Shown one piece after another: positions 6,062 to 47,780 of a stretch of 64,000 nucleotides of DNA; positions within the stretch are counted from its first letter, which is position 1, and each line of letters opens with the position of its first letter. The notes beneath the pieces were generated by a model. That model was not told where the DNA came from, did no database searches, and worked only from the letters and a program-made list of their open reading frames with translations. This DNA is from Mya arenaria (lineage: Eukaryota), in the NCBI RefSeq assembly GCF_026914265.1, contig NC_069127.1, positions 1,745,682-1,809,681 of the forward strand, written 5' to 3'. Both the position numbers and the translations under genes were made by a program.

Positions 6062-6178
6062 ATGGACTTTGATGCTCTTGTCATGGATATTGGATCTGGG
6101 ATGTCCAAGGCCGGTTTCGCTGGGGACGCAGCTCCGACAGCCATTTTCCCTTCCGTTGTTGGTCGACCTAGGAGTCGG
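6062..6178 (+). CDS. Actin-like protein first exon, second copy in the duplication
   Basis: Identical coding sequence to 2720-2836, with the same donor. Confidence 0.5.
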
Positions 6179-6593
6179 GTTAGTATTTGATTAAGATCCA
6201 CGAAGTCTGTTGTACAGTTTGTTTCCAAAATGTTAACGGAATCCTGAATTATTTCGTGTACCATTTAGATATGCATGGTCATGTCAAAGAAACCACTTGT
6301 TTATTGTCCAATGTCCAGTTACCTTAAATGACTGATTATAAGACTCAATTTTTCCCCCCAGAGTTCGATCTAAAAGATGCCTGCGTCATTTCAACCAGTA
6401 ATAGGCTTTTGATATTTTTTTCTGAAGTTGATTTTGAGGCTGAATTTGGCTCTTCAGAGAAATAAATGACTTAAATTTTAATTTTCTTTACCAACTGACT
6501 ACAAAAACTGTAGGGTTGGAGCCCATTTATTAGGTATGGTTTGGTAACCCGAACCATATGTATTTTTTTAAGCCTTAATGTTGTTGTATATGT

Positions 6594-9500
6594 AATAAGG
6601 ACCATAACTCTGGCCTTTGTGATTCTCATATAGTAAGGCCCATTAATCTTGTTTTAACTATTGTTGTATAGTAAGGCCTAAAACAGTGTCTATATGGATT
6701 GTTGTATAGTAAGGCCTATAACAGTGTCTATATGGATTGTTGTATAGTAAGGCCTAAAACAGTGTCTATATGGATTGTTGTATAGTAAGGCCTATAACAG
6801 TGTCTATATGGATTGTTGTATAGTAAGACCTAAAACAGTGTCTATATGGATTGTTGTATAGTAAGGCCTAAAACAGTGTCTATATGGATTGTTGTATAGT
6901 AAGGCCTATAACAGTGTCTATATGGATTGTTGTATAGTAAGGCCTAAAACAGTGTCTATATGGATTGTTGTATAGTAAGGCCTATAACAGTGTCTATATG
7001 GATTGTTGTATAGTAAGGCCTATAACAGTGTCTATATGGATTGTTGTATAGTAAGGCCTAAAACAGTGTCTATATGGATTGTTGTATAGTAAGGCCTATA
7101 ACAGTGTCTATATGGATTGTTGTATAGTAAGGCCTAAAACAGTGTCTATATGGATTGTTGTATAGTAAGGCCTAAAACAGTGTCTATATGGATTGTTGTA
7201 TAGTAAGGCCTAAAACAGTGTCTATATGGATTGTTGTATAGTAAGGCCTATAACAGTGTCTATATGGATTGTTGTATAGTAATCCCTATAACAGTGTCTA
7301 TATGGATTGTTGTATAGTAAGGCCTAAAACAGTGTCTATATGGATTGTTGTATAGTAAGGCCTAAAACAGTGTCTATATGGATTGTTGTATAGTAGGGCC
7401 TAAAACAGTGTCTATATGGATTGTTGTATAGTAAGGCCTATAACAGTGTCTATATGGATTGTTGTATAGTAAGGCCTAAAACAGTGTCTATATGGATTGT
7501 TGTATAGTAATCCCTATAACAGTGTCTATATGGATTGTTGTATAGTAAGGCCTAAAACAGTGTCTATATGGATTCTTGTATAGTAAGGCCTAAAACAGTG
7601 TCTATATGGATTGTTGTATAGTAAGGCCTAAAACAGTGTCTATATGGATTGTTGTATAGTAAGGCCTAAAACAGTGTCTATATGGATTGTTGTATAGTAA
7701 GGCCTAAAACAGTGTCGATATGGATTGTTGTATAGTAAGGCCTAAAACAGTGTCTATATGGATTGTTGTATAGTAAGGCCTAAAACAGTGTCTATATGGA
7801 TTGTTGTATAGTAAGGCCTATAACAGTGTCTATATGGATTGTTGTATAGTAAGGCCTATAACAGTGTCTATATGGATTGTTGTATAGAAAGGCCTATAAC
7901 AGTGTCTGTATGGATTGTTGTATAGTAAGGCCTAAAACAGTGTCTGTATGGATTGTTGTATAGTAAGGCCTAAAACAGTGTCTATATGGATTGTTGTATA
8001 GTAAGGCCTAAAACAGTGTCCATATGGATTGTTGTATAGTAAGGCCTAAAACAGTGTCTATATGGATTGTTGTATAGTAAGGCCTATAACAGTGTCTATA
8101 TGGATTGTTGTATAGTAAGGCCTATAACAGTGTCTATATGGATTGTTGTATAGTATGGCCTATAACAGTGTCTATATGGATTGTTGTATAGTAATCCCTA
8201 TAACAGTGTCTATATGGATTGTTGTATAGTAAGGCCTAAAACAGTGTCTATATGGATTGTTGTATAGTAAGGCCTAAAACAGTGTCTATATGGATTCTTG
8301 TATAGTAAGGCCTAAAACAGTGTCTATATGGATTCTTGTATAGTAAGGCCTAAAACAGTGTCTATATGGATTGTTGTATAGTAAGGCCTAAAACAGTGTC
8401 TATATGGATTGTTGTATAGTAAGGCCTAAAACAGTGTCTATATGGATTCTTGTATAGTAAGGCCTAAAACAGTGTCTATATGGATTGTTGTATAGTAAGG
8501 CCTAAAACAGTGTCTATATGGATTGTTGTATAGTAAGGCCTAAAACAGTGTCTGTATGGATTGTTGTATAGTAAGGCCTAAAACAGTGTCGATATGGATT
8601 GTTGTATAGTAAGGCCTAAAACAGTGTCTATATGGATTGTTGTATAGTAAGGCCTAAAACAGTGTCTATATGGATTGTTGTATAGTAAGGCCTATAACAG
8701 TGTCTATATGGATTGTTGTATAGTAAGGCCTATAACAGTGTCTATATGGATTGTTGTATAGTAAGGCCTATATCAGTGTCTATATGGATTGTTGTATAGT
8801 AAGGCCTAAAACAGTGTAGTAAGGCCTAAAACAGTGTCTATATGGATTGTTGTATAGTAAGGCCTATAACAGTGTCTATATGGATTGTCGTATAGTAAGG
8901 CCTATAACAGTGTCTATATGAATTGTTGTATAGTAAGGCCTATAACAGTGTCTATATGGATTGTCGTATAGTAAGGCCTATAACAGTGTCTATATGGATT
9001 GTTGTATAGTAAGGCCTATAACAGTGTCTATATGGATTGTTGTATAGTAAGGCCTAAAACAGTGTCTATATGGATTGTTGTATAGTAAGGCCTAAAACAG
9101 TGTCTATATGGATTGTTGTATAGTAAGGCCTAAAACAGTGTCTATATGGATTGTTGTATAGTAGGGCCTAAAACAGTGTCTATATGGATTGTTGTATAGT
9201 AAGGCCTAAAACAGTGTCTATATGGATTGTTGTATAGTAAGGCCTAAAACAGTGTCTATATGGATTGTTGTATAGTAAGGCCTAAAACAGTGTCTATATG
9301 GATTGTTGTATAGTAAGGCCTAAAACAGTGTCTATATGGATTGTTGTATAGTAAGGCCTAAAACAGTGTCGATATGGATTGTTGTATAGTAAGGCCTAAA
9401 ACAGTGTCTATATGGATTGTTGTATAGTAAGGCCTAAAACAGTGTCTATATGGATTGTTGTATAGTAAGGCCTATAACAGTGTCTATATGGATTGTTGTA

Positions 9501-10440
9501 TAGTAAGGCCTATAACAGTGTCTATATGGATTGTTGTATAGTAAGGCCTATAACAGTGTCTGTATGGATTGTTGTATAGTAAGGCCTAAAACAGTGTCTG
9601 TATGGATTGTTGTATAGTAAGGCCTAAAACAGTGTCTATATGGATTGTTGTATAGTAAGGCCTAAAACAGTGTAGTAAGGCCTAAAACAGTGTCTATATG
9701 GATTGTTGTATAGTAAGGCCTAAAACAGTGTCTATATGGATTGTTGTATAGTAAGGCCTATAACAGTGTCTATATGGATTGTTGTATAGTAAGGCCTATA
9801 ACAGTGTCTATATGGATTGTTGTATAGTAAGGCCTATAACAGTGTCTATATGGATTGTTGTATAGTAAGGCCTATAACAGTGTCTATATGGATTGTTGTA
9901 TAGTAAGGCCTATAACAGTGTCTATATGGATTGTTGTATAGTAAGGCCTAAAACAGTGTCTATATGGATTGTTGTATAGTAAGGCCTAAAACAGTGTCTA
10001 TATGGATTGTTGTATAGTAAGGCCTAAAACAGTGTCTATATGGATTGTTGTATAGTAAGGCCTAAAACAGTGTCTATATGGATTGTTGTATAGTAAGGCC
10101 TATAACAGTGTCTATATGGATTGTTGTATAGTAAGGCCTAAAACAGTGTCTATATGGATTGTTGTATAGTAAGGCCTATAACAGTGTCTATATGGATTGT
10201 TGTATAGTAAGGCCTAAAACAGTGTCTATATGGATTGTTGTATAGTAAGATCAATAACACTGTCTATATGGATTGCTGTATAGTAAGGACTATAACACTG
10301 TCTATATGGATTGTTGTATAGTAAGGACTATAACACTGTCTATATGGATTGCTGTATAGTAAGGCCCATTGCACTGGCTTTAATAGCTGTTGTAAAGTAA
10401 GGGCCATAACTCTGGATTTTATGATTATTGTTTTATAAAG
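6594..10440. repeat. 38-bp satellite, about 100 units, same family as 3236-3657
   Basis: Highly homogeneous tandem array with alternating cctaaaacag / cctataacag variants and degenerate ends. Confidence 0.95.
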
Positions 10441-11765
10441 TCAAACTCTGACTTTACTGGTGGTTGTATAGTAAAGCCTTTAATGCTTAATATACTGGTT
10501 GTTGTATAGTAAGGCCTTTAATGCTTGATATACTGGTTGTTGTATAGTAAGGCCTATAATGCTTGATATACTGGTGGTTGTATAGTAAGGCCTATAATGC
10601 TTGATATACTGGTTGTTGTATAGTAAGGCCTTTAATATTTGATATACTGGTTGTTGTATCGTAAGGCCTTAAATGTTTGATATACTGGTTGTTGTATAGT
10701 AAGGCCTATAATGCTTGATATACTGGTTGTTGTATAGTAAGGCCTATAATGCTTGATATACTGGTTGTTGTATAGTAAGGCCTATAATGTTTGATATACT
10801 GGTTGTTGTATAGTAAGGCCTTTAATGCTTGATATACTGGTTGTTGTATAGTAAGGCCTATAATGTTTGATATACTGGTTGTTGTATAGTAAGGCCTATA
10901 ATGTTTGATATACTGGTTGTTGTATAGTAAGGCCTTTAATGTTTGATATACTGGTTGTTGTATAGTAAGGCCTTTAATGCTTGATATACTGGTTGTTGTA
11001 TAGTAAGGCCTATAATGTTTGATATACTGATTGTTGTATAGTAAAGCCTATAATGTTTGATATACTGGTTGTTGTATAGTAAGGCCTATAATGTTTGATA
11101 TACTGGTTGTTGTATAGTAAGGCCTATAATGTTTGATATACTGGTTGTTGTATAGTAAGGCCTATAATGTTTGATATACTGGTTGTTGTATAGTAAGGCC
11201 TATAATGTTTGATATACTGGTGGTTGTATAGTAAGGCCTATAATGTTTGATATACTGGTGGTTGTATAGTAAGGCCTTTAATGCTTGATATACTGGTGGT
11301 TGTATAGTAAGGCCTATAATGTTTGATATACTGGTGGTTGTATAGTAAGGCCTATAATGTTTGATATACTGGTGGTTGTATAGTAAGGCCTATAATGTTT
11401 GATATACTGGTTGTTGTATAGTAAGGCCTATAATGCTTGATATACTGGTTGTTGTATAGTAAGGCCTATAATGCTTGATATACTGGTTGTTGTATAGTAA
11501 GGCCTATAATGCTTGATATACTGGTTGTTGTATAGTAAGGCCTTTAATGCTTGATATACTGGTTGTTGTATAGTAAGGCCTATAATGCTTGATATACTGG
11601 TAGTTGTATAGTAAGGCCTTTAATGCTTGATATACTGGTAGTTGTATAGTAAAGCCTTTAATGCTTGAGAATTTTTACTGGTTGTTGTATAGTAAAGCCT
11701 ATAATGCTTGATATACTGGTTGTTGTATAATAAGGCCTATAATGCTTGATATACTGGTTGTTGTA
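10440..11765. repeat. Variant 38-bp satellite (ttgttgtatagtaaggcctataatgYttgatatactgg), about 35 units
   Basis: Shares the 19-bp core ttgttgtatagtaaggcct with the preceding satellite, but the second half of the unit is different. Confidence 0.9.
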
Positions 11766-12289: not shown

Positions 12290-13320
12290 TTGTTAGTATC
12301 TCTAGCAATATGTCTATCTATATATCTTTATTCCCTCACTAAATATGTCTGTCTGTCTGTATCTAAGTCAATACATATCTCTGTATCTCAGTCAATGTAT
12401 CTGTCAATCTCTCGGTCAATATGTCTGTCTGTATCTCAGTCAATGTATCTGTCAATCTCTCAGTCAAAATGCCTGTCTGTATCTTAGTCAGTCAATGTAT
12501 CTGTCAATCTCTCAGTCAGTATGCCTGTCTGTATCTTAGTCAGTCAATGTATCTGTCAATCACTCAGTTAATATGTTTGTCTGTATCTTAGTCAGTCAAG
12601 GTATCTGTCAATCTCTCAGTCAATATGCCTGTCTGTATCTTAGTCAATGTATCTTTTAATCTCATAGTCAATATGCCTGTCTGTATCTTAGTCAATGTAT
12701 CTTTTAATCTCATAGTCAATATGCCTGTCTGTATCTTAGTCAATGTATCTTTTAATCTCATAGTCAATATGTCTGTCTGTATCTTAGTCAAGGTATCCGT
12801 CAATCTCTCAGTCAATATGCCTGTCTGTATCTTAGTCAATGTATCTTTTAATCTCATAGTCAATATGTCTGTCTGTATCTTAGTCAATGTATCTTTTAAT
12901 CTCATAGTCAATATGCCTGTCTGTATCTTAGTCAGTCAATGTATCTGTCAATCTCTCAGTCAGTATGCCTGTCTGTATCTTAGTCAGTCAATGTATCTGT
13001 CAATCACTCAGTTAATATGTTTGTCTGTATCTTAGTCAGTCAAGGTATCTGTCAATCTCTCAGTCAATATGCCTGTCTGTATCTTAGTCAATGTATCTTT
13101 TAATCTCATAGTCAATATGCCTGTCTGTATCTTAGTCAATGTATCTTTTAATCTCATAGTCAATATGCCTGTCTGTATCTTAGTCAATGTATCTTTTAAT
13201 CTCATAGTCAATATGCCTGTCTGTATCTTAGTCAATGTATCTTTTAATCTCATAGTCAATATGTCTGTCTGTATCTTAGTCAATGTATCTTTTAATCTCA
13301 TAGTCAATATGTCTATCTTA
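12290..13320. repeat. 24/48-bp satellite (agtcaatatgcctgtctgtatctt + agtcaatgtatcttttaatctcat)
   Basis: Tandem units read directly from the sequence. The long ORFs here on both strands are repeat artefacts. Confidence 0.95.
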
Positions 13321-13729
13321 GAGTCTGTCTTTAACTTTATCAATGTATTTTTATTAAAATCCAGTTTTTATTAAAGTCAGCGGTCCATATCATGTTTTTG
13401 GCCGGTCCAGACCTCGCCAAAAATATAGAATGGACCGCTGACGTCATCAAACCGGTGAGTGCTGCTTGCAGTTTGCACTAGGACATTTTTTCTCAAGTAA
13501 ACATTATAAGATTTGTTCAATAAAACACATCAAAGGCACTTTAAAATTATTAAATGGTTAAAAGTGTTCGGTAAAATATAAGAAATATAACACACCACTT
13601 CGGGCCATATGAAATTACAAGGACTGGCCAGTCAGCCCCCGAAGGTGAATGGACCTTCATTGGCTAACTGGCCGGTCCTTATATTGTCATATGGCCCTCA
13701 GTGATGTGTTATATTTCTTAACTGTATCT
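13321..13729. mobile_element. Non-satellite insertion of about 410 bp with internal hairpins (MITE-like) interrupting the 24/48-bp satellite
   Basis: Unique sequence between two blocks of the same satellite. It contains a 54-bp inverted repeat (taagaaatataacacaccacttcgggccatatg...catatggccctcagtgatgtgttatatttctta) and a smaller cagcggtccat...atggaccgctg hairpin. Confidence 0.45.
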
Positions 13730-14640
13730 AAGTCAATGTATCTGTCAATCTCTGAGTCAATATGTCTGTCTGTATCTCAGTCAATGTATCTGTCAATCTC
13801 TCAGTCAATATGCCTGTCTGTATCTTAGTCAGTCAATGTATCTGTCAATCTCTGAGTCAATATGTCTGTCTGTATCTCAGTCAATGTATCTGTCAATTTC
13901 TCAGTCAATATGTCTGTCTGTATCTCAGTCAATGTATCTGTCAATCTATTGGGCAGCATGTCTGTTTGTATTTCAGTCAATATGTCTGTCTGTATCTAAG
14001 TCAATGTATCTGTCAATATCTCAGTCAATATGTCTGTCTGTATTTCAGTCAATATGTCTGTCTGTATCTTAGTCAGTCAATGTATCTGTCAATCTTTCAG
14101 TCAATATGCCTGTCTGTATCTCATTCAATATGTCTGTCAATCTTTGAGTCAATATGTTATCTCAGTAAATATGTCCCTCTGTATCTCAGTTAATATGTCT
14201 GTCTGTATCTTAGTCAATGTATCTGTCAATCTCTGAGTCAATATGTCTGTCTGTATCTCAGTCAATGTATCTGTCAATCTCTCAGTCAATAAGTCTGTCT
14301 GTATTTCAGTCAATGTATCTGTCAATCTCTGAGTCAATATGCCTGTCTGTATTTTAGTCAATGTATCTGTCAATCTCTGAGTCAATATGTCTATCTTTAT
14401 CTCAGTCAATATGTCTGTCTGTATCTCAGTCAATGTATCTGTCAATCTCTCAGTCAATAAGTCTGTCTGTATTTCAGTCAATGTATCTGTCAATCTCTGA
14501 GTCAATATGCCTGTCTGTATCTTAGTCAATGTATCTGTCAATCTCTGAGTCAATATGTCTATCTTTATCTCAGTCAATATGTCTGTCTGTATCTCAGTCA
14601 ATGTATCTGTCAATCTCTCAGTCAATCTGTCCATCTGTCC
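13730..14640. repeat. Continuation of the 24/48-bp satellite, with variant subunits
   Basis: Same gtctgtctgtatct / agtcaatgtatctgtcaatctct units as 12290-13320. Confidence 0.95.
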
Positions 14641-14790: not shown

Positions 14791-14904
14791 ACAATGCCCA
14801 TGGAGACTCTGGAACAGAGAGTTGAACCTATTGATTCACCGATTGATTCACCGGTGGAAGAATCAGATGATGATCAGCCTGCATCTAGACAATTGTTCCA
14901 TATG
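14791..14904 (+). CDS. Candidate coding exon, possibly with the initiator ATG at 14794 (MPMETLEQRVEPIDSPIDSPVEESDDDQPASRQLFHM)
   Basis: Acceptor ttttccaatag, an ATG in acaATGc context, and donor gtaatt. The product is acidic and Pro/Ser-rich. It ends in phase 0. Confidence 0.3.
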
Positions 14905-16391: not shown

Positions 16392-16609
16392 GCAGTTAGA
16401 GGTGGAAGAACTAGGCAGACTGCCCGCAAGTCCACGGGAGGAAAAGCTCCTAGAGGTCCGTCTCCAGAATTGATCGCCAAAGTTCTGGAACCTGATCAAT
16501 CCGTGGAATATGAAGCATGTGAACTCCAACCTAAGAGGTCCAGATCCAGGGAGCGGGACATATATATGAAAGACTACAGGCCTGATGTATCAGAATATGT
16601 AGTACAACG
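16392..16609 (+). CDS. Coding exon whose product carries a histone H3 N-terminal tail-like stretch (GRTRQTARKSTGGKAPRG)
   Basis: Open frame of 72 codons after the pyrimidine-rich acceptor ...ttcttctgtctggacaaaag, ending at a GTATGT donor. QTARKSTGGKAPR is identical to H3 residues 5-17, but K4 is replaced by R. The rest of the exon (PSPELIAKVLEPDQSVEYEACELQPKRSRSRERDIYMKDYRPDVSEYVVQR) does not resemble histone. Confidence 0.4.
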
Positions 16610-16829: not shown

Positions 16830-17900
16830 CATATAGTTATATATCTTGGGGCTGGCTATTTAAGAGTTGCCCCTCTGTGTCTCATATATCTTGGGGCTGG
16901 CTATTAAGGAGTTGCGTCTGTGTCACATATCTTTGGGCTGGCTATTTAGGAGTTGCCCCTGTCTCATATATCTTGGGGCTGGCTATTTAGGAGTTGCCCC
17001 TGTCTCATTTATCTTTTGGCTGGCAATTTAGGAGTTGCCCTTGTCTCATATATCTTGGGGCTGGCTATTTAGGAGTTGCCTCTGTCTCATATATCTTGGG
17101 GCTGGCTATTTAGGAGTTGCCCCTGTCTCATATATCTTGGGGCTGGCTATTTAGGAGTTGCCCCTGTCTCATATATCTTGGGGCTGGCTATTTAGGAGTT
17201 GCCTCTGTCTCATATATCTTGGGGCTGGCTATTTAGGAGTTGCCTCTGTCTCATATATCTTTGGGCTGGCTATTTAGGAGTTGCCTCTGTCTCATATATC
17301 TTGGGGCTGGCTATTTAGGAGTTGACCCTGTCTCATATATCCTGGGGCTGGCTATTTAGGAGTTGACCCTGTCTCATATATCTTTGGGCTGGCTATTTAG
17401 GAGTTGCCCCTGTCTCATATATCTTGGGGCTGGCTATTTAGGGGCTGCCCCTGTCTCATATATCTTTGGGCTGACTATTTAGGAGTTGCCTCTGTCTCAT
17501 ATATCTTTGGGCTGGCTATTTAGGAGTTGCCTCTGTCTCATATATCTTGGGGCTGGCTATTTAGGAGTTGCCTCTGTCTCATATATCTTGGGGCTTGCTA
17601 TTTAGGAGTTGCCTCTGTCTCATATATTTTGGGGCTGGCTATTTAGGAGTTGCCTCTGTCTCATATATCTTGGGGCTGGCTATTTAGGAGTCGCCTCTTT
17701 CTCATATATCTTGGGGCTGGCTATTTAGGAGTCGCCTCTGTCTCATATATCTTGGGGCTGGCTATTTAGGAGTTGCCTCGGTGTCATATATCTTGAGGCT
17801 GGCTATTTAGGAGTTGCCTCTGTGTCATATATCTTGGAGCTGGCTATTAAGGAGTTGCCTCTCTCTCATATATCTTGGGGCTGGCTATTTAGAAGTTGCC
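16830..17900. repeat. 42-bp satellite (gctggctatttaggagttgccYctgtctcatatatcttgggg), about 25 units
   Basis: Read directly from the sequence. Confidence 0.95.
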
Positions 17901-18559
17901 TCTGTCTCGTCAATCATACGAGTTAACACCACCTCATGTCATATCACATCCCTGAAAAATCTTGTCATGCGAATAGCTTCAAAAGTATTGCACATATACA
18001 AATGAAACTTCATGTAAAGTTTAATCACCTTGGGAAAGCATGCACCTGTTATTTGTGTGACATGTCACTGACCACTGCACTCTTACTCCTGAATAAGATA
18101 TACTGCAATTAATTTGATATAGTTTAAATATTCCAAAAAGGATGACTAAATTTCGAAAACAATGGTTATTATGAAGGGTAGTGAGTTTAATTTGAATTTT
18201 TTTTTAGCATTAAACACAAGTTTATGAGACTATAGTGGATCACAGGAAACCTTTTAGCATACACCAATCATTTAACATTTTGCCTTTCTGCTATTCAATA
18301 CAAGGTTACATCTTGTTATCAGTCATTTATTACTTCCATAAATGCATTATTTATTAAGTAGTTAAAAGGTTTATCAGTCAAAATGGATGTTTGTTATACA
18401 TGTGTATGCATTGATTTTGAATAAGAGTGTCACTTAAGAGAATAAACGTCTGGACAATACAATTCCTGTGTCCAGGCAGCATCTTGGAAGTTTATCACTT
18501 CTGTAATGGTTCTTGTTTTGCTTTCTAGTTTCTGTAAGTGCGAGTAACATAGAGTTTTT

Positions 18560-19501: not shown

Positions 19502-19536
19502 GAAAATGAGATTTGATCCATCCTCTTCCCCTGAAT
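19502..19536 (+). CDS. Candidate 35-bp micro-exon (..KMRFDPSSSPE..)
   Basis: Textbook acceptor (ttttgcag) and donor (gtaagt). Its phase (needs 1 nt in, leaves 1 nt out) fits between the 16.4 kb and 22.3 kb exons. Confidence 0.2.
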
Positions 19537-19989: not shown

Positions 19990-21850
19990 TTCTAAACTCT
20001 GAAGAGGCATGTATATGTTACATTGGAATACCCAAATCACATGTACTCTTCAACCAGCCCAAATCTATACTTATGTGCTACAATCCGAAATTCATGCTGC
20101 AAATGTGCTACAACTCCAAATTCATAAACTAATGTATTACAGCCCCATATTCATAAAACTAATGTGTAACAACCCCAAATTCATAGTCCTAAAGTGTTAC
20201 AGCCCCAAATTCATTGACTAATGTTTTACAACCCCAAATTCATAAACTAATGTGTAACAACCTCAAATTCATAGTCCTAAAGTGTCAAAGCCCCAAATTC
20301 ATAAACTAATGTTTTACAACCCCAAATTCATAGTACTTATTGCTACAACCACAAATTCATAGTTCTAATTGCTACGACCCCAAACTCATAGTACTAATTG
20401 CTACAACACCAAATTCATAGTACTAATTGCTACAACGCCAAATTCATAGTTCTAGTGTGTTATAACCCACAATTCATAGTACTAATTGCTACAACCCCAA
20501 ATTCATAGTACTAATTGCAACAACCCCAAATTTATAGTACTACTGTGTTACAACCCCAAATTCATAGTACTAATTGCTACAACGCCAAATTCATAGTACT
20601 TAAATGTGCTACAACCCCAAATTCACTATGCTAATTGCTACAACCCCAAATTCATAGTTCTAGTGTGTTACAACCCCAAATTCAAAGTACTAATTGCTAC
20701 AACCCCAAATTCATAGTATTAATTGCTACAACCCCAAATTCATAGTACTAATTGCTACAACCCCAAATTCATAGTTCTAGTGTGTTATAACCCACAATTC
20801 ATAGTACTAATTGCTACAACCCCAAATTCATAGTTCTAGTGTGTTATAACCCACAATTCATAGTACTAATTGCTACATCCCCAAATTCATACTTCTATTG
20901 TGTTATAACCCACAATTCATAGTACTAATTGCTACAACCCCAAATTCATAGTATTAATTGCTACAACCCCAAATTCATAGTATTAATTGCTACAACCCCA
21001 AATTCATAGTTCTAGTGTGTTATAACCCACAATTCATAGTACTAATTGCTACAACCCCAAATTCATAGTATTAATTGCTACAACCCCAAATTCATAGTAC
21101 TAATTGCTACAACCCCAAATTCATAGTTCTAGTGTGTTATAACCCACAATTCATAGTACTAATTGCTACAACCCCAAATTTATAGTACTAATTGCAACAA
21201 CCCCAAATTTATAGTACTACTGTGTTACAACCCCAAATTCATAGTACTAATTGCTACAACCCCAAATTCATAGTACTTAAATGTGCTACAACCCCAAATT
21301 CACTATGCTAATTGCTACAACCCCAAATTCATAGTTCTAGTGTGTTACAACCCCAAATTCAAAGTACTAATTGCTACAACCCCAAATTCATAGTATTAAT
21401 TGCTACAACCCCAAATTCATAGTATTAATTGCTACAACCCCAAATTCATAGTACTAGTGTGTTACTACCACAAATTCATAGTACTAATTGCTACAATCCC
21501 AAATTCATAGTAATAGTGTGTTATAACCCCAAATTCATAGTACTAATTGCTACAACCCCAAATTCATAGTACTAGTGTGTTACAACCCCAAACTCATAGT
21601 ACTAAATGCTACAACCCCAAATTCATAGTACTTGTGTGTTATAACCCCAAATTCATAGTACTAATTGCTACAACCCCAAATTCATAGTACTAATTGCTAC
21701 AACCCCAAATTTATAGTACTTATGTGCTACAACACCAAATTCATAGTACTAATTGCTACAACTCCAAATTCATAGTACTAATGTGTTACAACACCAAATT
21801 CATAGTACTAATATGCTACAACACCAAATTCATAGTACTAATGCGCTACA
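19990..21850. repeat. 29-bp satellite (ctaattgctacaaccccaaattcatagta) with a higher-order variant (ttctagtgtgttataacccacaattcatagta), about 60 units
   Basis: Read directly from the sequence. Confidence 0.95.
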
Positions 21851-22288
21851 ACCCTTAATTCTTATACTTAAGTGTTTCAATCTTGGCAAATATAATTCTG
21901 TAAGCTGGATAGGCATTGACATAGGATTTGGCAAAACTGGAAACAATCATGAGACCCTTAATGTCAGCCAAGTAATCGCTTTTGTAATCATATTTTCCTG
22001 TTCTCAATGAAGTGGTTAAAACATATGTAAAAATGTATGGGAATATTTGTAAACAAAGGTGATTGCAATTCATAAATATAAGATAGTTAAGCACATGCTT
22101 TTTGCTATATAGATATGATTGCAGTATAGAATGGAAAATTGAACCTCGGTCAAGTTGTGCTGCTGGTTACTGGGCATGTCCTTTACCAGCCTGATTATGT
22201 GCCCTTGGACTGGATTTGCTAAATCCTCACACAATCACATAACATTTATTATTCTTACTTATATCACTTTTGTTTTTGTGTACTTCAG

Positions 22289-22480
22289 CCTCTAAGCTTG
22301 GTAGAGATGTAAAAATGTCAGAGGACACTAACCTCGCAGTGTTAGAGTCACATGATAATGATAAGGAGGAAATGAGGATTGTAGGAGGTGGAGCCTCTTC
22401 CCTCTTGATGGATGAGGGAGAAGAAGAGGAGGAGAATGAGGAGGACGAGGATATGGGGTTTGGCCTGTTTGATGATGATG
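22289..22480 (+). CDS. Coding exon with a ribosomal stalk P-protein-like acidic tail (IVGGGASSLLMDEGEEEEENEEDEDMGFGLFDDD)
   Basis: Acceptor tgtacttcag and donor gtgagt. The EEDEDMGFGLFD stretch matches the conserved C-terminus of P0/P1/P2 proteins, but here it is internal, followed by DDD and a splice donor. Phase: needs 2 nt in, leaves 1 nt out. Confidence 0.4.
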
Positions 22481-22885
22481 GTGAGTGCATAGGAAACTGA
22501 TATAGCTTTTTTATCCATTACTACCATTAGATTTGATGTAATGACTGGCGTCATATCAAGTACTAACTTGGTCTCCAATCTAGTATTAGAAAAAATGGCC
22601 ATCTTTCATAATTATGATGGGACATACATTTTCTGCTTTTTCTTTTGCATTATTTTTATGGAATTCTTATTCAGATAGAGTAATATTATTTTTTACTGTA
22701 CAAAATTCGAAATGCTATTGCACCTTTAATTGTTTTTTCTTGGCAAAAAACTATACTGGCTGAATGGTTTTGATTAAAAAGAAAGGGAAAAGAACTTATA
22801 ATTATGTTTGTTTTAGATCTATGTAAAATTTTATTGACCAACTATCTCTTTCATTATAATTAATAAAAGTAACAAGCAACTTTAA

Positions 22886-24839: not shown

Positions 24840-26400
24840 TGTAGGCTATCTCTTGGTTATCAGAGATGGGTATGAGGCCGTCATGAGAAACATCTGTATC
24901 TTTGGGTTATCAGAGCTGGGTATGAGGTCCCACAAACATCTGGGGTATAAGATTTGGATGAGGCAGCCAAAAACATCTGTGGTGTATAAGATCTGGATAT
25001 GAAGCAGCCATAAACATATGTGAGGTAAAAGATCTGTGTATGGAGAAGTCAGGAACAATTGTGGTGTGCAATTGTGAGTTGTCAGATCTAGATATGAAGG
25101 GACCAGGAACATCTGTGGGGTATATGATCTGGGTATGAGGCAGTAAGGAACATATGTGAGATAAAATATCTTAGTATAAGGCAGCCGTAAACATCTGTGG
25201 GGTATAAAATCTGAGTAAGAGCATCAATAAAGATCTGTTAGGTATAAGATCTGGGTATGAGGTAGCCATAAACATCAGTGGGGTATAAGATCTGGGTATA
25301 AACCAACCATAAACATCTGTGGAGTATAAGATCTTGGAATATAGGGAGCCATGAAAATGTGTGGAGCGTAAGAAAAGGGTATGAAGCAGCCTGAAACATC
25401 TGAGGGTTATAAGATCCGGGTATGATGCAGCAAGAAACATCTGAGGGGTATAACATCATGGTATGACGCAGCCAGAAACATCTGTGTGTGAGGTACAAGA
25501 TCCAGGTTTGAGGTGGCCAGAAACATCTGTGGTGTATAAGATCTGGGTATGAGGCAGGATTTTTTTTTTGTGGGGAATAATATCTGGGTATGAGGCAGCC
25601 AAAACCATCTGTGAGGTATGAGATCTGGGTATGAGGCAGCCATAAACTTCTGAGGGGTATAAGATCTGGGTATGAGGCAGCAAGAAACATCTGCGGGGTA
25701 TTACATCATGGTATTTAGCAGCCAAAAACATCGGTGGGGTATAAGATCTGGATATGAGGCAGCCAGAAACATCTGTGGGGTATAACAACATGGTATGACA
25801 CACCCAAAACATCTTTGGGGTATAAGATCCGGGTTTGAGGCAGCCAGTAACATCTGTGGTGTAAAAGATCTGGGTATCAGGTAGCCAGAAACACCTGTGG
25901 GGTATTATATCTGAGTATGACGCAGTCAGAAACATCTGTGGGGTATAAGATCTGGGTTTGAGGTGGCTAGAAACATCTTTAGTGTACAAGATCGGGGTAT
26001 GTCGCAGCAATAAACATCTGTGGAGTGATCTGGGTATGAGGCAGCCAGTAACATCTGAGGTGTATACTATCTGTTTATGAGGCAGCCAGTAACATCTGTG
26101 GTGTAAAGATCTGGGTATGAGGTAGCCAGAAACATCTGTGGTGTATAGGATCTGGGTATGAGGTAGCCAGAAACATCTGTGGTGTAAAGATCTGGGTATG
26201 AGGTAGCCAGTAACATCTGTGGTGTAAAGATCTGGGTATGAGGTAGCCAGAAACATCTGTGGTGTAAAGATCTGGGTATGAGGTAGCCAGAAACATCTGT
26301 GGTGTAAAGATCTGGGTATGAGGTAGCCAGAAACATCTGTGGTGTAAAGATCTGGGTATGAGGTAGCCAGAAACATCTGTGGTGTATAGGATCTGGGTAT
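24840..26400. repeat. 40-bp satellite (atctgggtatgaggtagccagaaacatctgtggtgtaaag), about 38 units
   Basis: Read directly from the sequence. The 317-aa minus-strand ORF here is a repeat artefact. Confidence 0.95.
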
Positions 26401-26892
26401 GAGGCCCATTACTCAGTATTTATTACCCATTACTTGTTCAGAATGGTCATTAATATTCCCATCATTCACATTCACAAGTTGTGAAGCAAGAAGAGAGAAG
26501 AGATCAGTTCAGTCCCATAATCAATAAGTTTCTTGTGCTCATTAATAGGGGTTTCCTGTTCATATTTGGTCTGATTTTGATATTGACAGTTCCAAATTTC
26601 ACTTGATTTGATGAAATGTATTTTTCAACCTGATAATCATGCAAGTGTTAGCCTTTTTCTCTTTGTAAAAAGTGTATTCTGGTGGACAACTTCTTAGGTC
26701 TAAATACTAAAAGATGATCTTATAAATAAATTCCAAGATAAGTATAAGTTTAGGATATTTCCTTTAAAATGTTAAGGTTAAGATATTTTACAAAAAACAG
26801 AAATCAATATTAAATTAAATTACAGCCAGATTTTTTACGTTCAAGTATGAATATCCCTTTTTGATAAACAATGTTGTTTTCTTTTTTTCTAG

Positions 26893-27729
26893 CAGAAGAT
26901 GCTTTAGATACAACCAAATCTAAAATGAATTTTGGAGAAAAACAGACTGCCATCACAGCTTCTTTTGCACACAAAATTGATGCTCAGGATGAAAGCAAGC
27001 AAGGACCTCCAGCAGTTTCATGGAGAAAAGTTGGTGAACCAAGATATCACTCAACAACAGCAGTATTGGGGAAGAATTCTGCATTTGAATTTGGGCTTCA
27101 ACAAACGCTCATGGAAAGAACAAGTTACAAACCACAGGCTTTTGGAGAAATTTGTTCAGCACCACCACCGCCACCTTTCCCTCAACAGGGAGGCTACTTT
27201 AGGCCCTACAGTCAACAATCTAGTAACCTTGCTTCCAATGGGCGTCATGCAACACTACAGTTCACGCAAAATGCAGAGCTTCCACCTCCAGGAGCACCGC
27301 CTCCTCCAGGTGCGCCTCTGGCTCCACATTTCCGTGCTAAGGTGCTTGCACCACCTCCACCTCCAGGTGCACCACCTTCTCCTCCAGTTGAGCCTCTGGC
27401 TCCACCTATCCATGCTAGGCCCCCTGCACCACCTCTACCTCCAGGTGCACCGCCTTCTTCTCCAGGTGTGTTTCTGGCTCAACCTCTCTCTGTGAAGGCC
27501 CCCGCACCACCTCCACCTCGACGTGCACTATCCAAAAGTCTGGCTCCACCTCTCCCTGCCAGGGCAGCTGCACCACCTCCCACTCGAGGTGCCCCTTCCC
27601 CAACTCTAGGTGCATCTCTGCGCCAAGCTCTCTCAACTGGGACCCCGGCACCACCTCCTACTGGACCTGCTGGCTTGAAAGCTCCACCTCTACAAAAATT
27701 TGCTTCCTGTTCTGTAGTCTCTTACGAAC
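26893..27729 (+). CDS. Large coding exon for a proline-rich, internally repetitive (FH1/WASP-like polyproline) protein segment
   Basis: 279-codon open frame in AT-rich DNA, acceptor ttttctag and donor gtaagt. It contains repeated PPPGAPPxPP(V/L)xPLAPP blocks. Phase: needs 2 nt in, leaves 1 nt out. Confidence 0.55.
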
Positions 27730-31150: not shown

Positions 31151-31760
31151 ATAATTTTTTATACAGTATAACCCTTTTGAATTTTCATATATGTTTTTCA
31201 TTAAAATATCATTATATTTGATCAGCTCCATTTATAGGACATAAGCATATATAACATAATTTAAAACACTTTTGAACGCACTTATCCTTATAGACAAACA
31301 AATAAGATACACTTAACTGCTTTCTACAGCAGCAGATGATCTTTTTAAACTTTTAGCTTCGAATTAAAGTCTTAAATATTTAATATGAAATATTTTTTGT
31401 CATGAAATAGATATTTAATATGAAATATTTTTTGTCATGAAATAGATATACTTAAACCAAGGATTTCTACACATGCTATATGGGGCAAAGAAACTTAATC
31501 TGTTTCAACTAAAATTCATATATTACCATGACAGATCTCATAATATAAGAATGTTGAGAAATACCTTTTTCATTGGCCATTTCAGTGAAGTTTATTGTGA
31601 AAAAGATTATCAATTATTATGTTTACAATTATAAACCAGATATTGTTTACACTTTATCATTGTTACATTTAAATTCAATTATAATCTTCATCATCTTTCC
31701 TTTCAAGACAAAAGAATGAATAAAAAGATATTGTCATAATGACATGCTGTACTGTTGAAG

Positions 31761-31946
31761 ATTCAAGAGAGAAATCGGCTCAGCTGCTGTTGTTGGATGT
31801 AACGCCGTTGTCCCTGGGGGTTGAGGTGATGGGCGGGGTCATGCGTGTCATTATACCAAGAAATAGCACCATCCCGACTAAGAAGAATTTGATGTTCTAC
31901 CCTCCTAATGACAGCAATGGGGAAGTTGTAGTGAATGTTTATGAAG
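31761..31946 (+). CDS. Hsp70-family protein, substrate-binding-domain exon A (start uncertain between 31728 and 31761)
   Basis: Translation ..[63 protein letters not shown] aligns with the Hsp70 linker and SBD-beta (DLLLLDVAPLSLGIETAGGVMT.LIKRNTTIPTK...VLIQVYEGER). Donor gttagt. An in-frame stop at 31721 limits the 5' extent. Confidence 0.6.
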
Positions 31947-32222: not shown

Positions 32223-32408
32223 GAGAGCGCCCACATGTTGTGGACAACCACCATCTCGGCGTTGTAAAGCTTGCTGTTTCCACACCAAGAACGTCTGCAC
32301 CAACTATAAATGTTACGTTTGACATAGATGCAAATGGAATTTTGCGTGTTACAGTTATGGATACAGTTTTGAACACCGTTAACAGTATCCAAATAGCAAA
32401 TGAACAAG
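32223..32408 (+). CDS. Hsp70-family protein, SBD exon B
   Basis: [46 protein letters not shown]...IQIANEQG matches Hsp70 [45 protein letters not shown]...ITITNDKG. Acceptor cctcactttcag and donor gtattg. The phase joins exon A as YEG|ER. Confidence 0.65.
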
Positions 32409-32764: not shown

Positions 32765-32887
32765 GTCGACTGAGTCGAGAAGAGATTGAGAGGCAGGTGG
32801 GTGGATCGGAACAGTCAAAAGAACTTGATGATACAGTTTGGAAAGCAAACAAGACAAACATGACCTTACCATCACCATATAAAGGAG
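32765..32887 (+). CDS. Hsp70-family protein, exon C (GRLSREEIERQV...)
   Basis: GRLSREEIERQVGGSEQSKELDD matches Hsp70 GRLSKE(E/D)IERMVQEAEKYKAEDE. Acceptor gtgttttag and donor gtaata. The phase is consistent with exons B and D. Confidence 0.6.
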
Positions 32888-33759: not shown

Positions 33760-34870
33760 GTTACAATTGAAGGTAATTTTGCCAATGTAGCAGTTGAAAG
33801 TTCACTGTGTTGGATAATTTGCTAATGTTACTAGGTACTAGTATAGGTTCAATTGCCAATGTTACAATTAAATGTTAACTGTATGGTATAAGTTACCAAC
33901 AATACTAGTATAGATCCAATTGCAAGCAATTGAAGGTTTACTCACTGTAGGATACAAGATACAAGAATCTTTATTTCAAGTCGGGTGTATGTTAACAAGA
34001 AACATTAGCTCATTGAGCTATATTTTCCGACACAAATAACAGACATACAAAACATATCAAATAAAAATAACAATGAGCTTGTGACCTGGAAATTAATAAA
34101 TGGATCATTTGCCAATGTAACTAATTTACTGGTAGGTCCCATTGCCAATACAGCAATTCAGGTTTACTGTGTAGAATCACTTGCCAATTTAACTTTTTAA
34201 GTTTAGGGTCAATTGCCAATACAGCCATTAAGATTTACCGTGTAGAATCACTCGCCAATATAACTTTTTAAGTAAATGTTCAATTGCCAATACAGCAATT
34301 AAGGTTTACTGTGTAGAATCACTTGCCAATATAACTAGTAAAGGTCCAATTGCCAATACAGCAATTAAGGTTTACTGTGTAGAATCACTTGCCAATATAA
34401 CTAGTAAAAGTCCAATTGCCAATACAGCAATTGAGGGTTACTGTGTAGAATCACTTGCCAATATAACTAGTAAAGGCCCAATTGCCAATTCAGCAATTAA
34501 GGGTTACTGTGTAGAATCACTTGCCAATATAACTAGTAAAGGTCCAATTGCCAATTCAGCAATTAAGGTTTACTGTGTAGAATGACTTGCCAATCTAACA
34601 AGTAAAGGTCCAATTGCCAATTCAGCAATTAAAGTTTACTGTGTACTATCACTTGCCAATATAACTAGTTAAGGTCCAATTGCCAATTCATCAATTAAAG
34701 TTTACTGTGTAGAATGACTTGCCAATCTAACAAGTAAAGGTCCAATTGCCAATACAGCAGTTAAGGTTTATGTGAAGATTGTAGAAACACTTGCCAATGT
34801 CACTAGTAAAGGTCCAGTTGCCAATGTTACTACCTAGTAAAAATGTTTACTGCATCTGATCAGTTGCCAA
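33760..34870. repeat. Satellite of about 63 bp (ccaattgccaatacagcaattaaggtttactgtgtagaatcacttgccaatataactagtaaaggt), about 17 units, inside an intron of the Hsp70-like gene
   Basis: Read directly from the sequence. It lies between exons E and the terminal exon. Confidence 0.9.
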
Positions 34871-36264: not shown

Positions 36265-36668
36265 GTTCCAAAGTCGGTGAGGAGATAAAGAGTCTGTTGT
36301 TGACGGTTATGGTCGGGCTGTGTGTACTCCAACTTCTCATCCCAGAGTTCTTTCCCAGCTCTTTCTCCAGGGAACTCCAACAAGCCTTACACGAGAAGTT
36401 GAAAACACGCCTCAGTGAGCTCGTCCACACAAATCAGATCACCAATGAGCAAGCTGGTGAGCTAGCACAAAGCCTGGAGCACTCTTTGGCGTATGGTAAT
36501 GAAGTCTACGAGAAATATCCAATGGTTTGTTCCATTTTGGAGCTTGGAACCTCATGGGGAGCTATTGGGGGGAAATTTCTTGGATTGTATAAGGAGGACA
36601 TGCCAAAAAGCATTACACAATCAACCATAAAGGAACAAACAACGTCAAGACATGAAACATTTGTTTAA
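36265..36668 (+). CDS. Terminal coding exon of the Hsp70-like gene, ending at TAA 36666-36668; C-terminal region not Hsp70-like
   Basis: 134-codon open frame after acceptor tgctttttag. The incoming phase matches exon E. It contains a hydrophobic stretch LLLTVMVGLCVLQLLIPEFF. The following DNA is AT-rich and looks like 3' UTR. Confidence 0.45.
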
Positions 36669-38879: not shown

Positions 38880-40620
38880 AGGCCGTTATATATGGTAGGT
38901 AGGATCACCAAATGGTCCTCTACCTAGACTGTTCAAATTATGGCCCTTGGGTCAAAATTTGCCCCGCCCCGGGGGGGGGGGGGTCATGGGTTTTCTCTAT
39001 ATGTTTATAGTGAAAACTTAAAAAATCTTCTCCTCTGAACTTACTTGGCCTAGAGCTTAGATATTTAGCATGATTCATCGTCTAGTGGACCTCTACAAAG
39101 ATTGTTCAAATTATGGCCCTGGGGTCAAAATTGGCCCCGCCCCGGGGGGTCATGGGTATTCTCTATATGTTTATAGTTAAAATTTCAAAAATCATCTCCT
39201 CTGAACTTACTTGGACTAGAGCTTAGATATTTGGCATGATTCATCGTCTAGTGGACCTCTACAAAGATTGTTCAAATTATGGCCTTGGGGTCAAAATTGG
39301 CCCCGCCCCGCCCCGGGGGGTTAGGGTATTCTCTATATGTTTATAGTTAAAACTTCAAAAATCTTCTCCTTTGAACTTACTTGGACTAGAGCTTAGATAT
39401 TTGGCATGATTCATCGTCTAGTGGACCTCTACAAAGATTGTTCAAATTATGGCCTTGGGGTCAAAATTGGCCCCGCCCCCTTGGGGGGTCATGGGTTTTC
39501 TCTATATGTTTATAGTGAAAACTTCAAAAATCATCTCCTCTTAACTTACTTGGACTAGAGCTTAGATATTTGGCATGATTCATCGTCTAGTGGACCTCTA
39601 CAAAGATTGTTCAAATTATGGCCCTGGGGTCAAAATTGGCCCCGCCCCTGGGGGGTCATGGGTTTTCTCTTATGTGTTTATGGTAAAAAAAATTAAAAAT
39701 CTCCTCTGAACTTACGTTGCTTAGAGCTTAGATATTTGACATGATTCATCGTCTAGTGGACCTCTACAAAGATTGTTCAAATTATGGCCTTGGGGTCAAA
39801 ATTGGCCCCGCCCCGCCCCGGGGGGTTAGGGTATTCTCTATATGTTTATAGTTAAAACTTCAAAAATCTTCTCCTTTGAACTTACTTGGACTAGAGCTTA
39901 GATATTTGGCATGATTCATCGTCTAGTGGACCTCTACAAAGATTGTTCAAATTATGGCCTTGGGGTCAAAATTGGCCCCGCCCCCTTGGGGGGTCATGGG
40001 TTTTCTCTATATGTTTATAGTGAAAACTTCAAAAATCATCTCTTCTTAACTTACGTGGCTTAGAGCTTAGATATTTGGCATGATTCATCGTCTAGTGAAC
40101 CTCTACAAAGTTTGTTCAAATTATGGCCCTGGGGTCAAAATTGGCCACACCCCGGGGCTGATGGGTTTTTTCTATATGTGTTATAGTGAAAACTTAAAAA
40201 ATCTTCTCCGAACTCACAAAGACAAGTAACGTCTTAATTTAAACTGGATAACATATTTAGTACACATACCAATTTTCAATATGGGCCACATACAACAATT
40301 AATAACAAATATACATATATAGATACACACGTAAAATCAAGTAGTGACAAGAGCTTAGCTATTTGGCATGATATATCATCTAGTTGACTTGTACCAATAT
40401 TGTTCAATCTTTGGCCCTGGGGTCAAAAAAATGGCCCCACCCGGGCGGTCATGGGTTTCCTTATATATGTATATGATGAAAACTTAAAAAATCTTCTTCT
40501 CCGAAACCAAAAGGCAAAGGCCTTAGATATTTGGTATGAAGCATCGTTTATCGGACCACTATTAAGATTGTTCAAACTTTAGCCCTGGGGTCAAAATTGG
40601 CCACGCCCCGTGTTCATAGG
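38880..40620. repeat. Satellite of about 170 bp, about 10 units, with a ggtcaaaattggccccgccccgggggg core
   Basis: Read directly from the sequence. It includes a G13 run at about 38968. Confidence 0.9.
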
Positions 40621-42689: not shown

Positions 42690-43880
42690 CCCCCACAAAC
42701 AAAGTTTGAGGGGGTATATAGGAGTGAGCTTGTCGGTCGGTCGGTTGGGGCTGGTGGGGCCAAGGTCAAGGTCACTGTTACTAAAAATAGAAAAACGGTT
42801 TCCGGACGATATCTCATGAAAGGCTTGACAGATTTGAACAATTTTTGGTACACAGGTGTAACATCAGAAGATACAGGTCAAGTTCGATATTAGGGCTGGT
42901 GGGGCCAAGGTCAAGGTTACTGTTACTAAAAATAGAAAAACGGTTTCCGGACGATAACTCATGAAAGGCTAGACAGATTTAAACAATTTTTGGTACACAG
43001 TTGCACCTTCAGAAGATACAGGTCAAGTTCGATATTGGGGCTGGTGGGGCAAAGGTCAAGGTCATTGTTACAAAAAATAGAAAAACAGTTTCCGGAGGAT
43101 AACTCATGAAAGGCGTGACAGATTTGAACAATTTTTGGTACACAGGTGTAACATCAGAAGATACAGGTCAAGTTCGATATTGGGGCTGGTGGGGCCAAGG
43201 TCAAGGTCACTGTTACTAAAAATAGAAAAACGGTTTCCGGACGATAACTCATGAAAGGCTAGACAGATTTGAACAATTTTGGTACACAGGTGGAACATCA
43301 GAAGATACAGTTTGGTACACAGGTGTAACATCAGAAGATATAGGTCAAGTTCGATATTGGGGTTGGTGGGGCCAAGGTCAAGGTCACTGTTACTAAAAAT
43401 AGAAAAAACGGTTTCCGGACGATAACTCATGAAAGGCTTGACGGATTTGAACAATTTTTGGTACACAGGTGTAACATCAGAAGATACAGGTCAAGTTCGA
43501 TATTGGGGCTGGTGGGGCCAAAGTTAAGGTCACTGTTACTACAAATAGAAAAACGGTTTCCGGACGATAAATCATGAAAGGCTTGACAGATTTGAACAAT
43601 TTTTGGTACACAGGTGTAACATCAGAAAATACAGGTCAAGTTCGATATTGGGGCTGGTGGGGCCAAGGTCAAGGTCACTGTTACTAAAAATAGAAAAACG
43701 GTTTCCGGACGATAACTCATGAAAGGCTAGACAGATTTGAACAATTTTTGATACACAGGTGTAACATCAGAAGATACAGGTCAAGTTCGATATTGGGGCT
43801 GGTGGGGCCAAGGTCAAGGTCACTGTTACTAAAAATAGAAAAACGGTTTCCGGACGATAACTCATGAAAGGATAGTTTTT
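42690..43880. mobile_element. Pearl-like composite element: perfect hairpin head ttatacccccacaaacaaagtttgagggggtatata, (GTCG)n, then about 7 tandem units of about 165 bp
   Basis: The units contain gggctggtggggccaaggtcaaggtcactgttactaaaaatagaaaaacggtttccggacgataactcatgaaaggct. Confidence 0.65.
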
Positions 43881-46199: not shown

Positions 46200-47780
46200 G
46201 ACCGTCACCTTGAAGGTGTGAAATCGAGTACTATACAGCTGAAGTCGTCTTGTATGTTGATAAGCTTAATACGGCGAAAGCTACAGGATTAGATGGAATA
46301 GGGCCTAATATCCTAAAACAATGTGGTGATTGTATTGTTATACCACTAACGTCCATCATAAATAATAGCATACGGCTAGGAATATTCCCAGACTCATTAA
46401 AATAGGCTAAGGTTTTGCCTATATATAAATATTCTGATCGCAATGATCCAAATAACTATAGACCAATTTCTATCCTTCCAACACTGTCAAAGGTGTTTGA
46501 ACTGCACTTGGCAGATGAAATCAAAACATTTTTTTTTTTAAAAAACGAATGTCATACATGAATTTCAATCTGGGTTTCGAGAAAAAACATTCTTGTCATA
46601 CAGCGTTGATAAGAATAATTGATGATTGGATTGATGGAATTGACAATGGAAACTATGTAAGTGCTCTCTTTCTTGATTTACGAAAGGCGTTCGATCTAGT
46701 AGATCACCAAATACTTTTACATAAATTGAAATTATACAATTTCAGTGATAATTCCGTCCAACTGATAACTTCATATTTGAAAGATAGACACCAAATTGTA
46801 AAGTTTGGGGATTTCCAATTTTCACGAAGATATATAAGGTCTGGAGTTCCTCAAGGATCCATTCTTGGTCCTATTCTTTTTCTTATATATATTAACGACA
46901 TAACCTTTGAAATTGAAAATTCCTTGATTGACTTATATGCTGATGATACTACACTACATGCAAAAAGTTCAAATACGCAGGAAATTGAACGTACGTTGCA
47001 AATAAATTTAGATATGGTATCGGATTGGTGCAAAGTAAACAACATGGCAGTACATCCACAAAAAACTAATTGTATATTGCTGGGTTCAAATGCAGAGTTA
47101 AGAAATGCATGTGCACTCAATTAATTCGTAGACAAAGTACTAATTGAAAATGTAACTTGCTTAAAATTATTATTGATTCATCATTGTCGTGGAATCTGCA
47201 AGTTGAATTTGTCTGCAAGAAAGTAACTGCAAAGATAGCCCTTTTAAAAAGACTCAATTATTTTTTAACGGATCAAATGAGACAATTGTTTTATAAATCG
47301 TATATACTTCCTATGTTTGACTATTGTTGTAGCGTTTGGGGGAAAAGTAAGCAAACGCATATGAGACGAATCACCATGCTTCAAAAAAGAGCTGCAAAAA
47401 TTATTCTCTTTAAGCCTATTAGAACGCCATCGCATGAATTATTTAAAAAAATATAGAATGGCTTCAATTTGAATACCGTTGCAGATATCAAACGGATGTT
47501 ATGGTATTTAAATCTATTAATAATCTTACACCGAGTTACATAAGAGACATTATTAAGATATCTAGCAACACAAGATATGGATTACGATCTTCCACGCGAC
47601 AAGACATTGCTCACTTTCGACATAAAACACAATACAAGAAACACTCGTTTGCATGCTACAGTGGGAAAGTTTGGATTTTTTTTACCAGAAGATATACGTA
47701 AGTCTAACACGGAAAAGACATTTGAAACCCGCTGCAAGAAGTTCAATTTACATCATCAATCGCAAAATCCGTTGTAAAAA
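46200..47780 (+). mobile_element. Non-LTR retrotransposon (CR1/L2/Jockey-like) reverse-transcriptase region, degraded, with no endonuclease domain upstream
   Basis: RT motifs across three frameshifted ORFs: TGLDGIGPNILK, FPDSLK*AKVLPIYK...NYRPISILP, F(R)EKHSCHTAL, FLDLRKAFD, GVPQGSILGPILF, YADDT, then thumb-like LKRLNYFL...LYKSYILPMFDYCCSVWG, then a tail FKSINNLTPSYIRD...RSS. There is an in-frame stop within LK*AKV. Confidence 0.8.

Follow-up and report, generated by a model that had tools for sequence, protein, structure and literature searches.

The window, as we call the whole 64,000-nucleotide stretch of DNA that was analysed, is AT-rich (GC about 0.30-0.42), contains dense tandem satellites, and displays spliceosomal-type gene structure. 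Our attention centers on exon C, a candidate internal coding exon at 22289-22480 on the + strand that is delimited by its sequence, frame, and splice sites and that falls within a possible six-exon gene on the same strand. Satellite arrays occupy the introns and flanks of this gene model, with periods of 38 nt (6660-11623, approximately 130 copies), 24/48 nt (12352-14638), 41 nt (16839-17908 and 25084-26405), 29 nt (20068-21868), 66 nt (34134-34825), 169 nt (38913-40209), and 145 nt (42745-43875). Farther downstream lie LINE-type reverse transcriptase ORFs (46214-47700, +), which were identified on visual inspection through motifs such as FLDLRKAFD and SGVPQGSILGP, and a tRNA-like element (63498-63570, -) that scores 34.4 bits against the Rfam tRNA model, yields no anticodon from ARAGORN, and is possibly the head of a SINE. 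Rfam and tRNA scans of the window returned nothing bearing on exon C.

Pieces of housekeeping genes are scattered through the same DNA. Two identical copies of an actin first exon, at 2720-2836 and 6062-6178 (+), lie within a tandem duplication of ~3.34 kb; each comprises 39 codons, has both an ATG and a CGG|GTTAGT donor, and is 74% identical to actin residues 2-39, and no further actin exons occur in the window. The phase 0 donor of the actin exon would fit the acceptor at 14790|14791 in frame, a junction that we do not claim. Three HSP70-like exons with good splice sites (31739-31946, 32223-32408, and 32765-32796, all +) are located between exons D and E of the gene model. They encode the substrate-binding domain only, corresponding to HSPA8 residues 383-530 (Pfam HSP70, E 2e-13 and 3e-10), and no HSP70 nucleotide-binding domain was detected in the window. 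We considered and rejected their inclusion in the same transcript, as only a purine-rich, poor acceptor at 31727|31728 keeps the frame from exon D and the third exon ends in phase 0, mismatching exon E; we therefore treat the HSP70-like exons as a separate nested fragment. The 1-1 exon at 32223-32408 could in principle serve as an in-frame cassette. Together, these orphan housekeeping pieces could represent either a graveyard in which fragments accumulate and decay or a mosaic gene built from fragments.

Exon C itself is 192 nt long and forms an open stretch of 64 codons, made up of 63 whole codons and two split ones. Its frame (codon starts at 22288/22291) translates as A-SKLGRDVKMSEDTNLAVLESHDNDKEEMRIVGGGASSLLMDEGEEEEENEEDEDMGFGLFDDD, with the peptide ending in ...EGEEEEENEEDEDMGFGLFDDD, and the remaining two frames across the exon are closed by numerous stops. 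Upstream is a pyrimidine-rich tract with an AG acceptor, tttgtttttgtgtacttcAG (22269-22288, + strand, AG at 22287-22288), that scores 2.4 bits with a generic position weight matrix; downstream, directly adjoining the exon, is the consensus donor GTGAGT (22481-22486, +; G|GTGAGT, 6.2 bits), which is one of the 31 highest-scoring donors on the + strand. Between these signals, in the final third of the exon at 22414-22479 (+), resides a module resembling the tail of the ribosomal stalk proteins, recognised by both Pfam and tblastn and consisting of an acidic run, EGEEEEENEEDE, the core DMGFGLFD (22450-22473), and a DD extension. The preliminary description had placed a P-protein tail in an internal exon with a proper acceptor, where it is followed by DDD and GTGAGT in place of a stop codon, and this arrangement is borne out by the sequence and its translation in every detail. 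The exon is in phase 1 at either end, so the frame survives its skipping, and the gene model without exon C is likewise open; possibly, then, it is a cassette exon. The 85-codon stop-to-stop ORF that contains the exon is unremarkable by length alone. Transposon-like terminal repeats flanking exon C were looked for and none were found.

Six exons on the + strand (A-B-B2-C-D-E, 14794-36668), which we assembled by eye and then checked with a script, join into a chain of 1797 nt and 598 codons that has AG/GT at every junction, remains in frame throughout without an internal stop, and ends in TAA. Exon A (14794-14904, +) provides the ATG and an acidic, Ser/Pro-containing N-terminus (MPMETLEQRVEPIDSPIDSPVEESDDD...), and ends in phase 0 at the donor ATG|gtaatt; a good acceptor, 14790|14791, lies 3 nt 5' of its ATG. 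In exon B (16392-16609, +) lies a copy of the N-terminal tail of histone H3, which is discussed below. A 35-nt mini-exon, B2 (19502-19536, +; tttttgcag|GAAAATG...CTGAAT|gtaagt), leads from phase 2 to phase 1 and thereby joins B to C in frame, and among the nine AG..GT pairs between B and C it is the sole pair that bridges the frame. Exon D (26893-27729, +) is an 837-nt, phase 1-1 exon whose second half is proline-rich, with PPPPPGAPP repeats, and Tandem Repeats Finder detects a 78-nt repeat within it at 27281-27528. Exon E (36265-36668, +), which ends in the TAA, is predicted with low confidence to be all-helical (pLDDT 54 in an AlphaFold model built without an alignment). It contains a strong internal donor at 36456|36457 (CTG|GTGAGC, 6.7 bits) that would give an alternative 192-nt, phase 1-1 form, and the gene may continue downstream of exon E in some isoforms. 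The resulting model protein of ~598 residues is mostly of low complexity and includes an RS-rich stretch; its N-terminal part is acidic, its middle is proline-rich, and its C-terminal exon is predicted to be helical. The exons flanking C have no similarity to P proteins.

Several intrinsic properties of the chain bear on whether it represents a gene. GC content at codon positions 1/2/3 is 0.61/0.50/0.36, a pattern that looks coding-like, and the exons range from 0.40 to 0.52 in GC compared with 0.32-0.41 for the introns. We also counted exon-like objects, defined as open frames of at least 150 nt bounded by an acceptor of at least 2 bits and a donor of at least 5.5 bits under a generic splice scoring matrix of our own making. 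The + strand has nine, namely exon C, variants of exon D, and a form of exon E, which reduce to three distinct objects that are all part of the chain; the - strand has one. In 60 first-order Markov simulations, the mean was 0.2 per strand and the maximum was 2. By the same generic matrix, the acceptors of exon A (at its ATG) and exon B score poorly. Taken together, these intrinsic signals point to a real multi-exon gene more than to a chance ORF, and on the sequence evidence we consider it slightly better than an even bet that exon C is a real exon of a gene that does not encode a P protein.

The histone-like segment of exon B, RTRQTARKSTGGKAPR at 16407-16454 (+), is a near-exact copy of H3 residues 2-17. 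It retains 15 of these 16 residues, including an intact ARKS, and has Arg in place of Lys4. In the PDB sequence search, the exon B tail matches H3 residues 2-19 in many chains, and only the first 16-18 residues of the tail are truly H3-like; in tblastn, an alignment to H3 residues 3-72 reaches 36% identity, driven by the tail. The same tblastn search detected no histone fold after the exon B tail or elsewhere in the window. The occurrence of H3 tail sequence in a non-histone protein is reminiscent of histone-tail mimicry, such as that of ARKS-type viral mimics. Compared with the known mimics listed in that literature, which span 4-6 residues and are mostly viral, the exon B copy is longer, at 16 residues, and belongs to an animal-type gene; unlike H3 itself, it has no free N-terminus and has Arg at the position of Lys4. 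Thus, a single gene model includes copies of two terminal tails from abundant proteins, the N-tail of H3 and the C-tail of the ribosomal stalk.

The likeness of exon C to the stalk proteins is limited to that C-tail. Pfam Ribosomal_60s (PF00428) aligns with exon C residues 43-61 only over profile positions 69-88 of 88 (E 1.8e-4), and its score of 22.4 bits falls below the curated cut-off of 28.1 bits. When human P0, P1, and P2 were compared with the 64-kb window by tblastn, only their last 17-20 residues matched, at 22411-22473, with 65-76% of those residues matching; for P0, the match covers residues 301-317 only. Within this segment, EGEEEEENEEDEDMGFGLFD (22414-22473) includes both the acidic run, which is intact, and the DMGFGLFD core, which is identical to the consensus at 8/8 residues. 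Exon C therefore shares with the C-terminal domain of P0/P1/P2 (PF00428, consensus SD[D/E]DMGFGLFD) an acidic run followed by DMGFGLFD. It differs from these proteins in the placement of the motif, which is not at the extreme C-terminus but is internal and is followed by FDDD, a split codon, the GTGAGT donor, and further exons, and in its host protein, which is otherwise unrelated and has neither a dimerisation domain nor an Ala/Pro hinge or P0 body. By our own estimate, ~2e-5 occurrences of MGFGLFD are expected by chance in six frames of a 64-kb sequence of the window's composition, so the motif is no chance match; either the core descends from a P gene or selection maintains it.

Two origins had been offered in the preliminary description, namely that the tail was exon-shuffled into another gene or that the exon belongs to a P1/P2 gene whose stop codon was lost. 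The second of these, which we extend to P0, could draw on the tail similarity itself and on a short GGGA faintly reminiscent of the hinge start. Against it, similarity to P proteins starts only ~20-29 residues before the end of exon C, and the upstream part, which had been suggested as a potential match to the P1/P2 N-terminal dimerisation domain, does not resemble it: when the first 41 residues were aligned with the P1/P2 bodies of human and Drosophila, 214-318 of 500 shuffled sequences reached the observed score. Furthermore, the Pfam match is confined to the tail and is below the family cut-off, tblastn finds neither a P1/P2 dimerisation domain nor a P0 body in the 64-kb window, and the in-frame flanking exons are unrelated. 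Because the upstream part performs no better than shuffled sequence and no other part of a P protein is present in the 64 kb, we reject a P1/P2 gene with a lost stop, unless an N-terminal P1/P2 exon beyond the window were joined to 22289, and an ordinary P1/P2 or P0 gene of that kind now strikes us as extremely improbable. The exon-shuffling alternative fares better and agrees with every test made: the exon is symmetric, it joins in frame to flanks without similarity to P proteins, and the host frame encodes an unrelated protein, largely of low complexity.

Searches for relatives of the exon and of the model protein returned little. The 64-aa product, which the preliminary description had singled out for comparison with protein databases, yielded no homologue there, and an exhaustive HMMER protein search with exon C recovered two spurious repeat proteins only. 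No matches emerged from word-seeded protein searches with exon C alone, with a query stripped of its low-complexity and motif parts, or with exons A-D, the last of which produced 8000 candidates and was probably swamped by poly-proline words. Scanning metagenomes with exons B-D spliced together produced 117 pattern matches, none of which was confirmed, and exact look-ups of three window ORFs in an assembly collection gave no match. Pfam assigned no significant domain to exons A, B, D, and E (a DUF5555 match to A+B at E 0.036 was disregarded), and a PDB sequence search with exon E yielded chance-level matches only. Since these databases yielded no homologue, the model gene is lineage-restricted or else is no gene at all.

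The internal placement of a stalk tail is found elsewhere. A degenerate DNA pattern encoding D-MGFGLF-DDD, in which the tail is followed by Asp instead of a stop, was run against a metagenome collection and recovered eight loci (L001-L008), seven of them distinct; by our own estimate, in which the size of the collection is a guess, ~0.01 chance matches would be expected per ~1e12 bases. All eight have an acidic run before the motif and at least 35 further codons after it, and together they place an internal [ED]DDMGFGLFDDD in at least five unrelated protein contexts. In L002 the motif follows WD40 repeats at the end of a WD40 protein, in L006 it falls inside a DUF4139 domain (E 1.4e-11), and in L005 it occurs at position ~470 in a continuous 693-codon ORF without Pfam domains; other loci likewise have no Pfam domain. 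L007 and L008 each have a second, degenerate copy upstream (ESDEDFDFNLFG / DLGFNLFG). The proteins encoded there, which are eukaryote-like, resemble exon C in the core, the preceding acidic run, the trailing DDD, and the internal position, whereas their sequence similarity to it is confined to the motif.

A search of a full-text literature library gave no occurrence of the string GFGLFDD, and the papers containing MGFGLFD, among the matches listed, concern P proteins, toxins, or autoantibodies. As far as we have seen, then, the internal stalk tail is a recurring feature that has apparently gone undescribed so far, and from these sequences the stalk tail looks like a short, portable motif. That it turns up repeatedly as an internal motif at other loci makes a functional role for the exon C copy more likely.

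Phase 1-1 exons are the class typical of shuffled metazoan modules, and exon C begins and ends in the same phase, as expected of an exon-shuffled module. Most likely, the end of a P-protein gene would have been duplicated or captured into an intron with phase-1 splice sites on both sides. The reading that we prefer, held at a little under even confidence, is that exon C is a genuine-looking exon of an orphan, non-P, six-exon gene and carries a mimic of the stalk tail. We infer that exon C is expressed and that its motif works like a stalk tail.

In ribosomal proteins, the tail is found at the free C-terminus, and its terminal Asp contacts Arg235 of ricin. Binding studies indicate that the acidic DDD and FGLFD parts both contribute to recognition by Shiga toxin, the ricin A chain, and trichosanthin, that the Asp after LF is critical for the ricin A chain, and that the free P tail is disordered and becomes a helix or turn once it occupies the hydrophobic pocket of its partner (PMC6162817). 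Other sources connect the stalk tail with GTPase recruitment and with Gcn2 (for example PMC11624264 and PMC3794596). Exon C keeps all of the residues of the tail that are relevant to binding, with extra acidic residues on either side, and for this reason the simplest mechanism would be that of a soluble or tethered stalk-tail mimic, a proposal to which we give rather low credence. As a short linear motif that is exposed and both acidic and hydrophobic, the exon C motif would fold upon contact with hydrophobic pockets, and these would be the ones known to receive the stalk tail in translational GTPases, in GCN2, and in toxins that inactivate ribosomes. In that case the host protein would be tethered to the partners of the stalk or would act as a soluble competitor of, or decoy for, the ribosomal stalk. 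Precedent for a tail detached from the ribosome comes from the synthetic stalk-tail peptides used to compete against the binding of ricin and Shiga toxin to ribosomes (PMC6162817; PMC3280276), and free P-tail peptides compete with ribosomes (PMC6162817). These peptides have a free C-terminal Asp and are active at high micromolar concentrations (PMC6162817), whereas the motif of exon C is embedded in a protein; we would expect the exon C tail, if soluble and exposed, to compete for these pockets as well.

Alternatively, exon C may be a pseudo-exon or relic, a dead fragment of a P gene or pseudogene that lies unexpressed in a satellite- and fragment-rich region and whose open frame and splice-like signals are fortuitous or decaying. 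This account sits well with the presence in the same window of two orphan actin first exons, the substrate-binding part of HSP70, and an H3 tail, with the satellites that fill the introns and flanks, with the lack of a homologue in protein or metagenome searches, and with the ordinary length of the 85-codon ORF. It is harder to reconcile with three distinct, co-linear, phase-compatible exon-like objects on one strand where 0.2 are expected, with a chain that stays open through 598 codons and whose codon-position GC looks coding, with a tail that has not decayed at any of its eight core residues or in its acidic run, and with the lack of transposon termini beside exon C. We regard such a relic as unlikely, if far from negligible. 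Should exon C prove unexpressed, the finding would come down to a gene fragment, well preserved, in a region rich in such fragments.

Other accounts accept a real exon and place its end or its function differently. An in-frame TGA at 22498-22500 (+), 6 codons past exon C and 8 codons past the FD of the motif, is reached only if the donor is unused and would add GECIGN, and AATAAA/ATTAAA signals follow it at 22773 and 22862 (+). With the donor at 22480 unused or used in part and polyadenylation nearby, exon C could be an alternative last exon with a near-C-terminal tail (…MGFGLFDDDGECIGN), an arrangement that would suit the stalk-tail partners described in the literature consulted, all of which bind a free C-terminus (PMC6162817). 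The G|GTGAGT donor is perfect and among the best in the window, however, exon D begins in exactly the matching phase, and the DDD-trailed versions internal to long ORFs elsewhere suggest that a near-terminal position is unneeded. We therefore think it quite improbable that exon C ends the transcript in this way, and note that such a terminal exon could coexist with the main model in a second isoform. It may also be that the exon is real and that its motif makes a generic acidic-hydrophobic contact, as in an acidic activation domain or FG-type sequence, such that identity with the P tail reflects origin only. The H3-tail copy, RS-rich stretch, and proline-rich region of the host would be fitting in a nuclear protein, and GLFG/FG-like stretches adjoin the motif in some of the metagenomic proteins with an internal copy. 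A core identical at 8/8 residues with its acidic run, here and nearly so in unrelated proteins, is nonetheless more conservation than a generic contact would demand, and we consider this account improbable.

The preferred reading, an exon of a non-P gene bearing a stalk-tail mimic, would be of interest because the literature consulted treats the stalk tail as a feature of P0, P1, and P2, where it serves as a handle for GTPases, for GCN2 activation, and for ricin-type toxins. If the reading is true, a cellular protein with an intact, exposed tail could compete for, or be delivered to, the partners of the ribosome, and would constitute a novel type of regulator or of decoy for toxins. The internal motif in several unrelated metagenomic proteins suggests that the phenomenon is wider than one locus. 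More speculatively, and with small likelihood in our estimation, the stalk tail may be a portable motif that has been acquired repeatedly across eukaryotes, and perhaps by large viruses; the gene described here would then be an animal example in which H3 and stalk tails are combined in one disordered protein that plugs into or competes with stalk partners, such as translational GTPases and GCN2, or that decoys ribosome-inactivating toxins. With regard to viruses, one and the same non-P ORF of ~95-107 codons is present on two IMG/VR contigs, L009 (69.5 kb, 6481-6801) and L010 (187 kb, 850-1170); this ORF lacks a P-protein body, ends in ...SSSSDDMGFGLFD followed by a stop, and is possibly a viral mimic of the stalk tail or the product of a misfiled eukaryotic contig.
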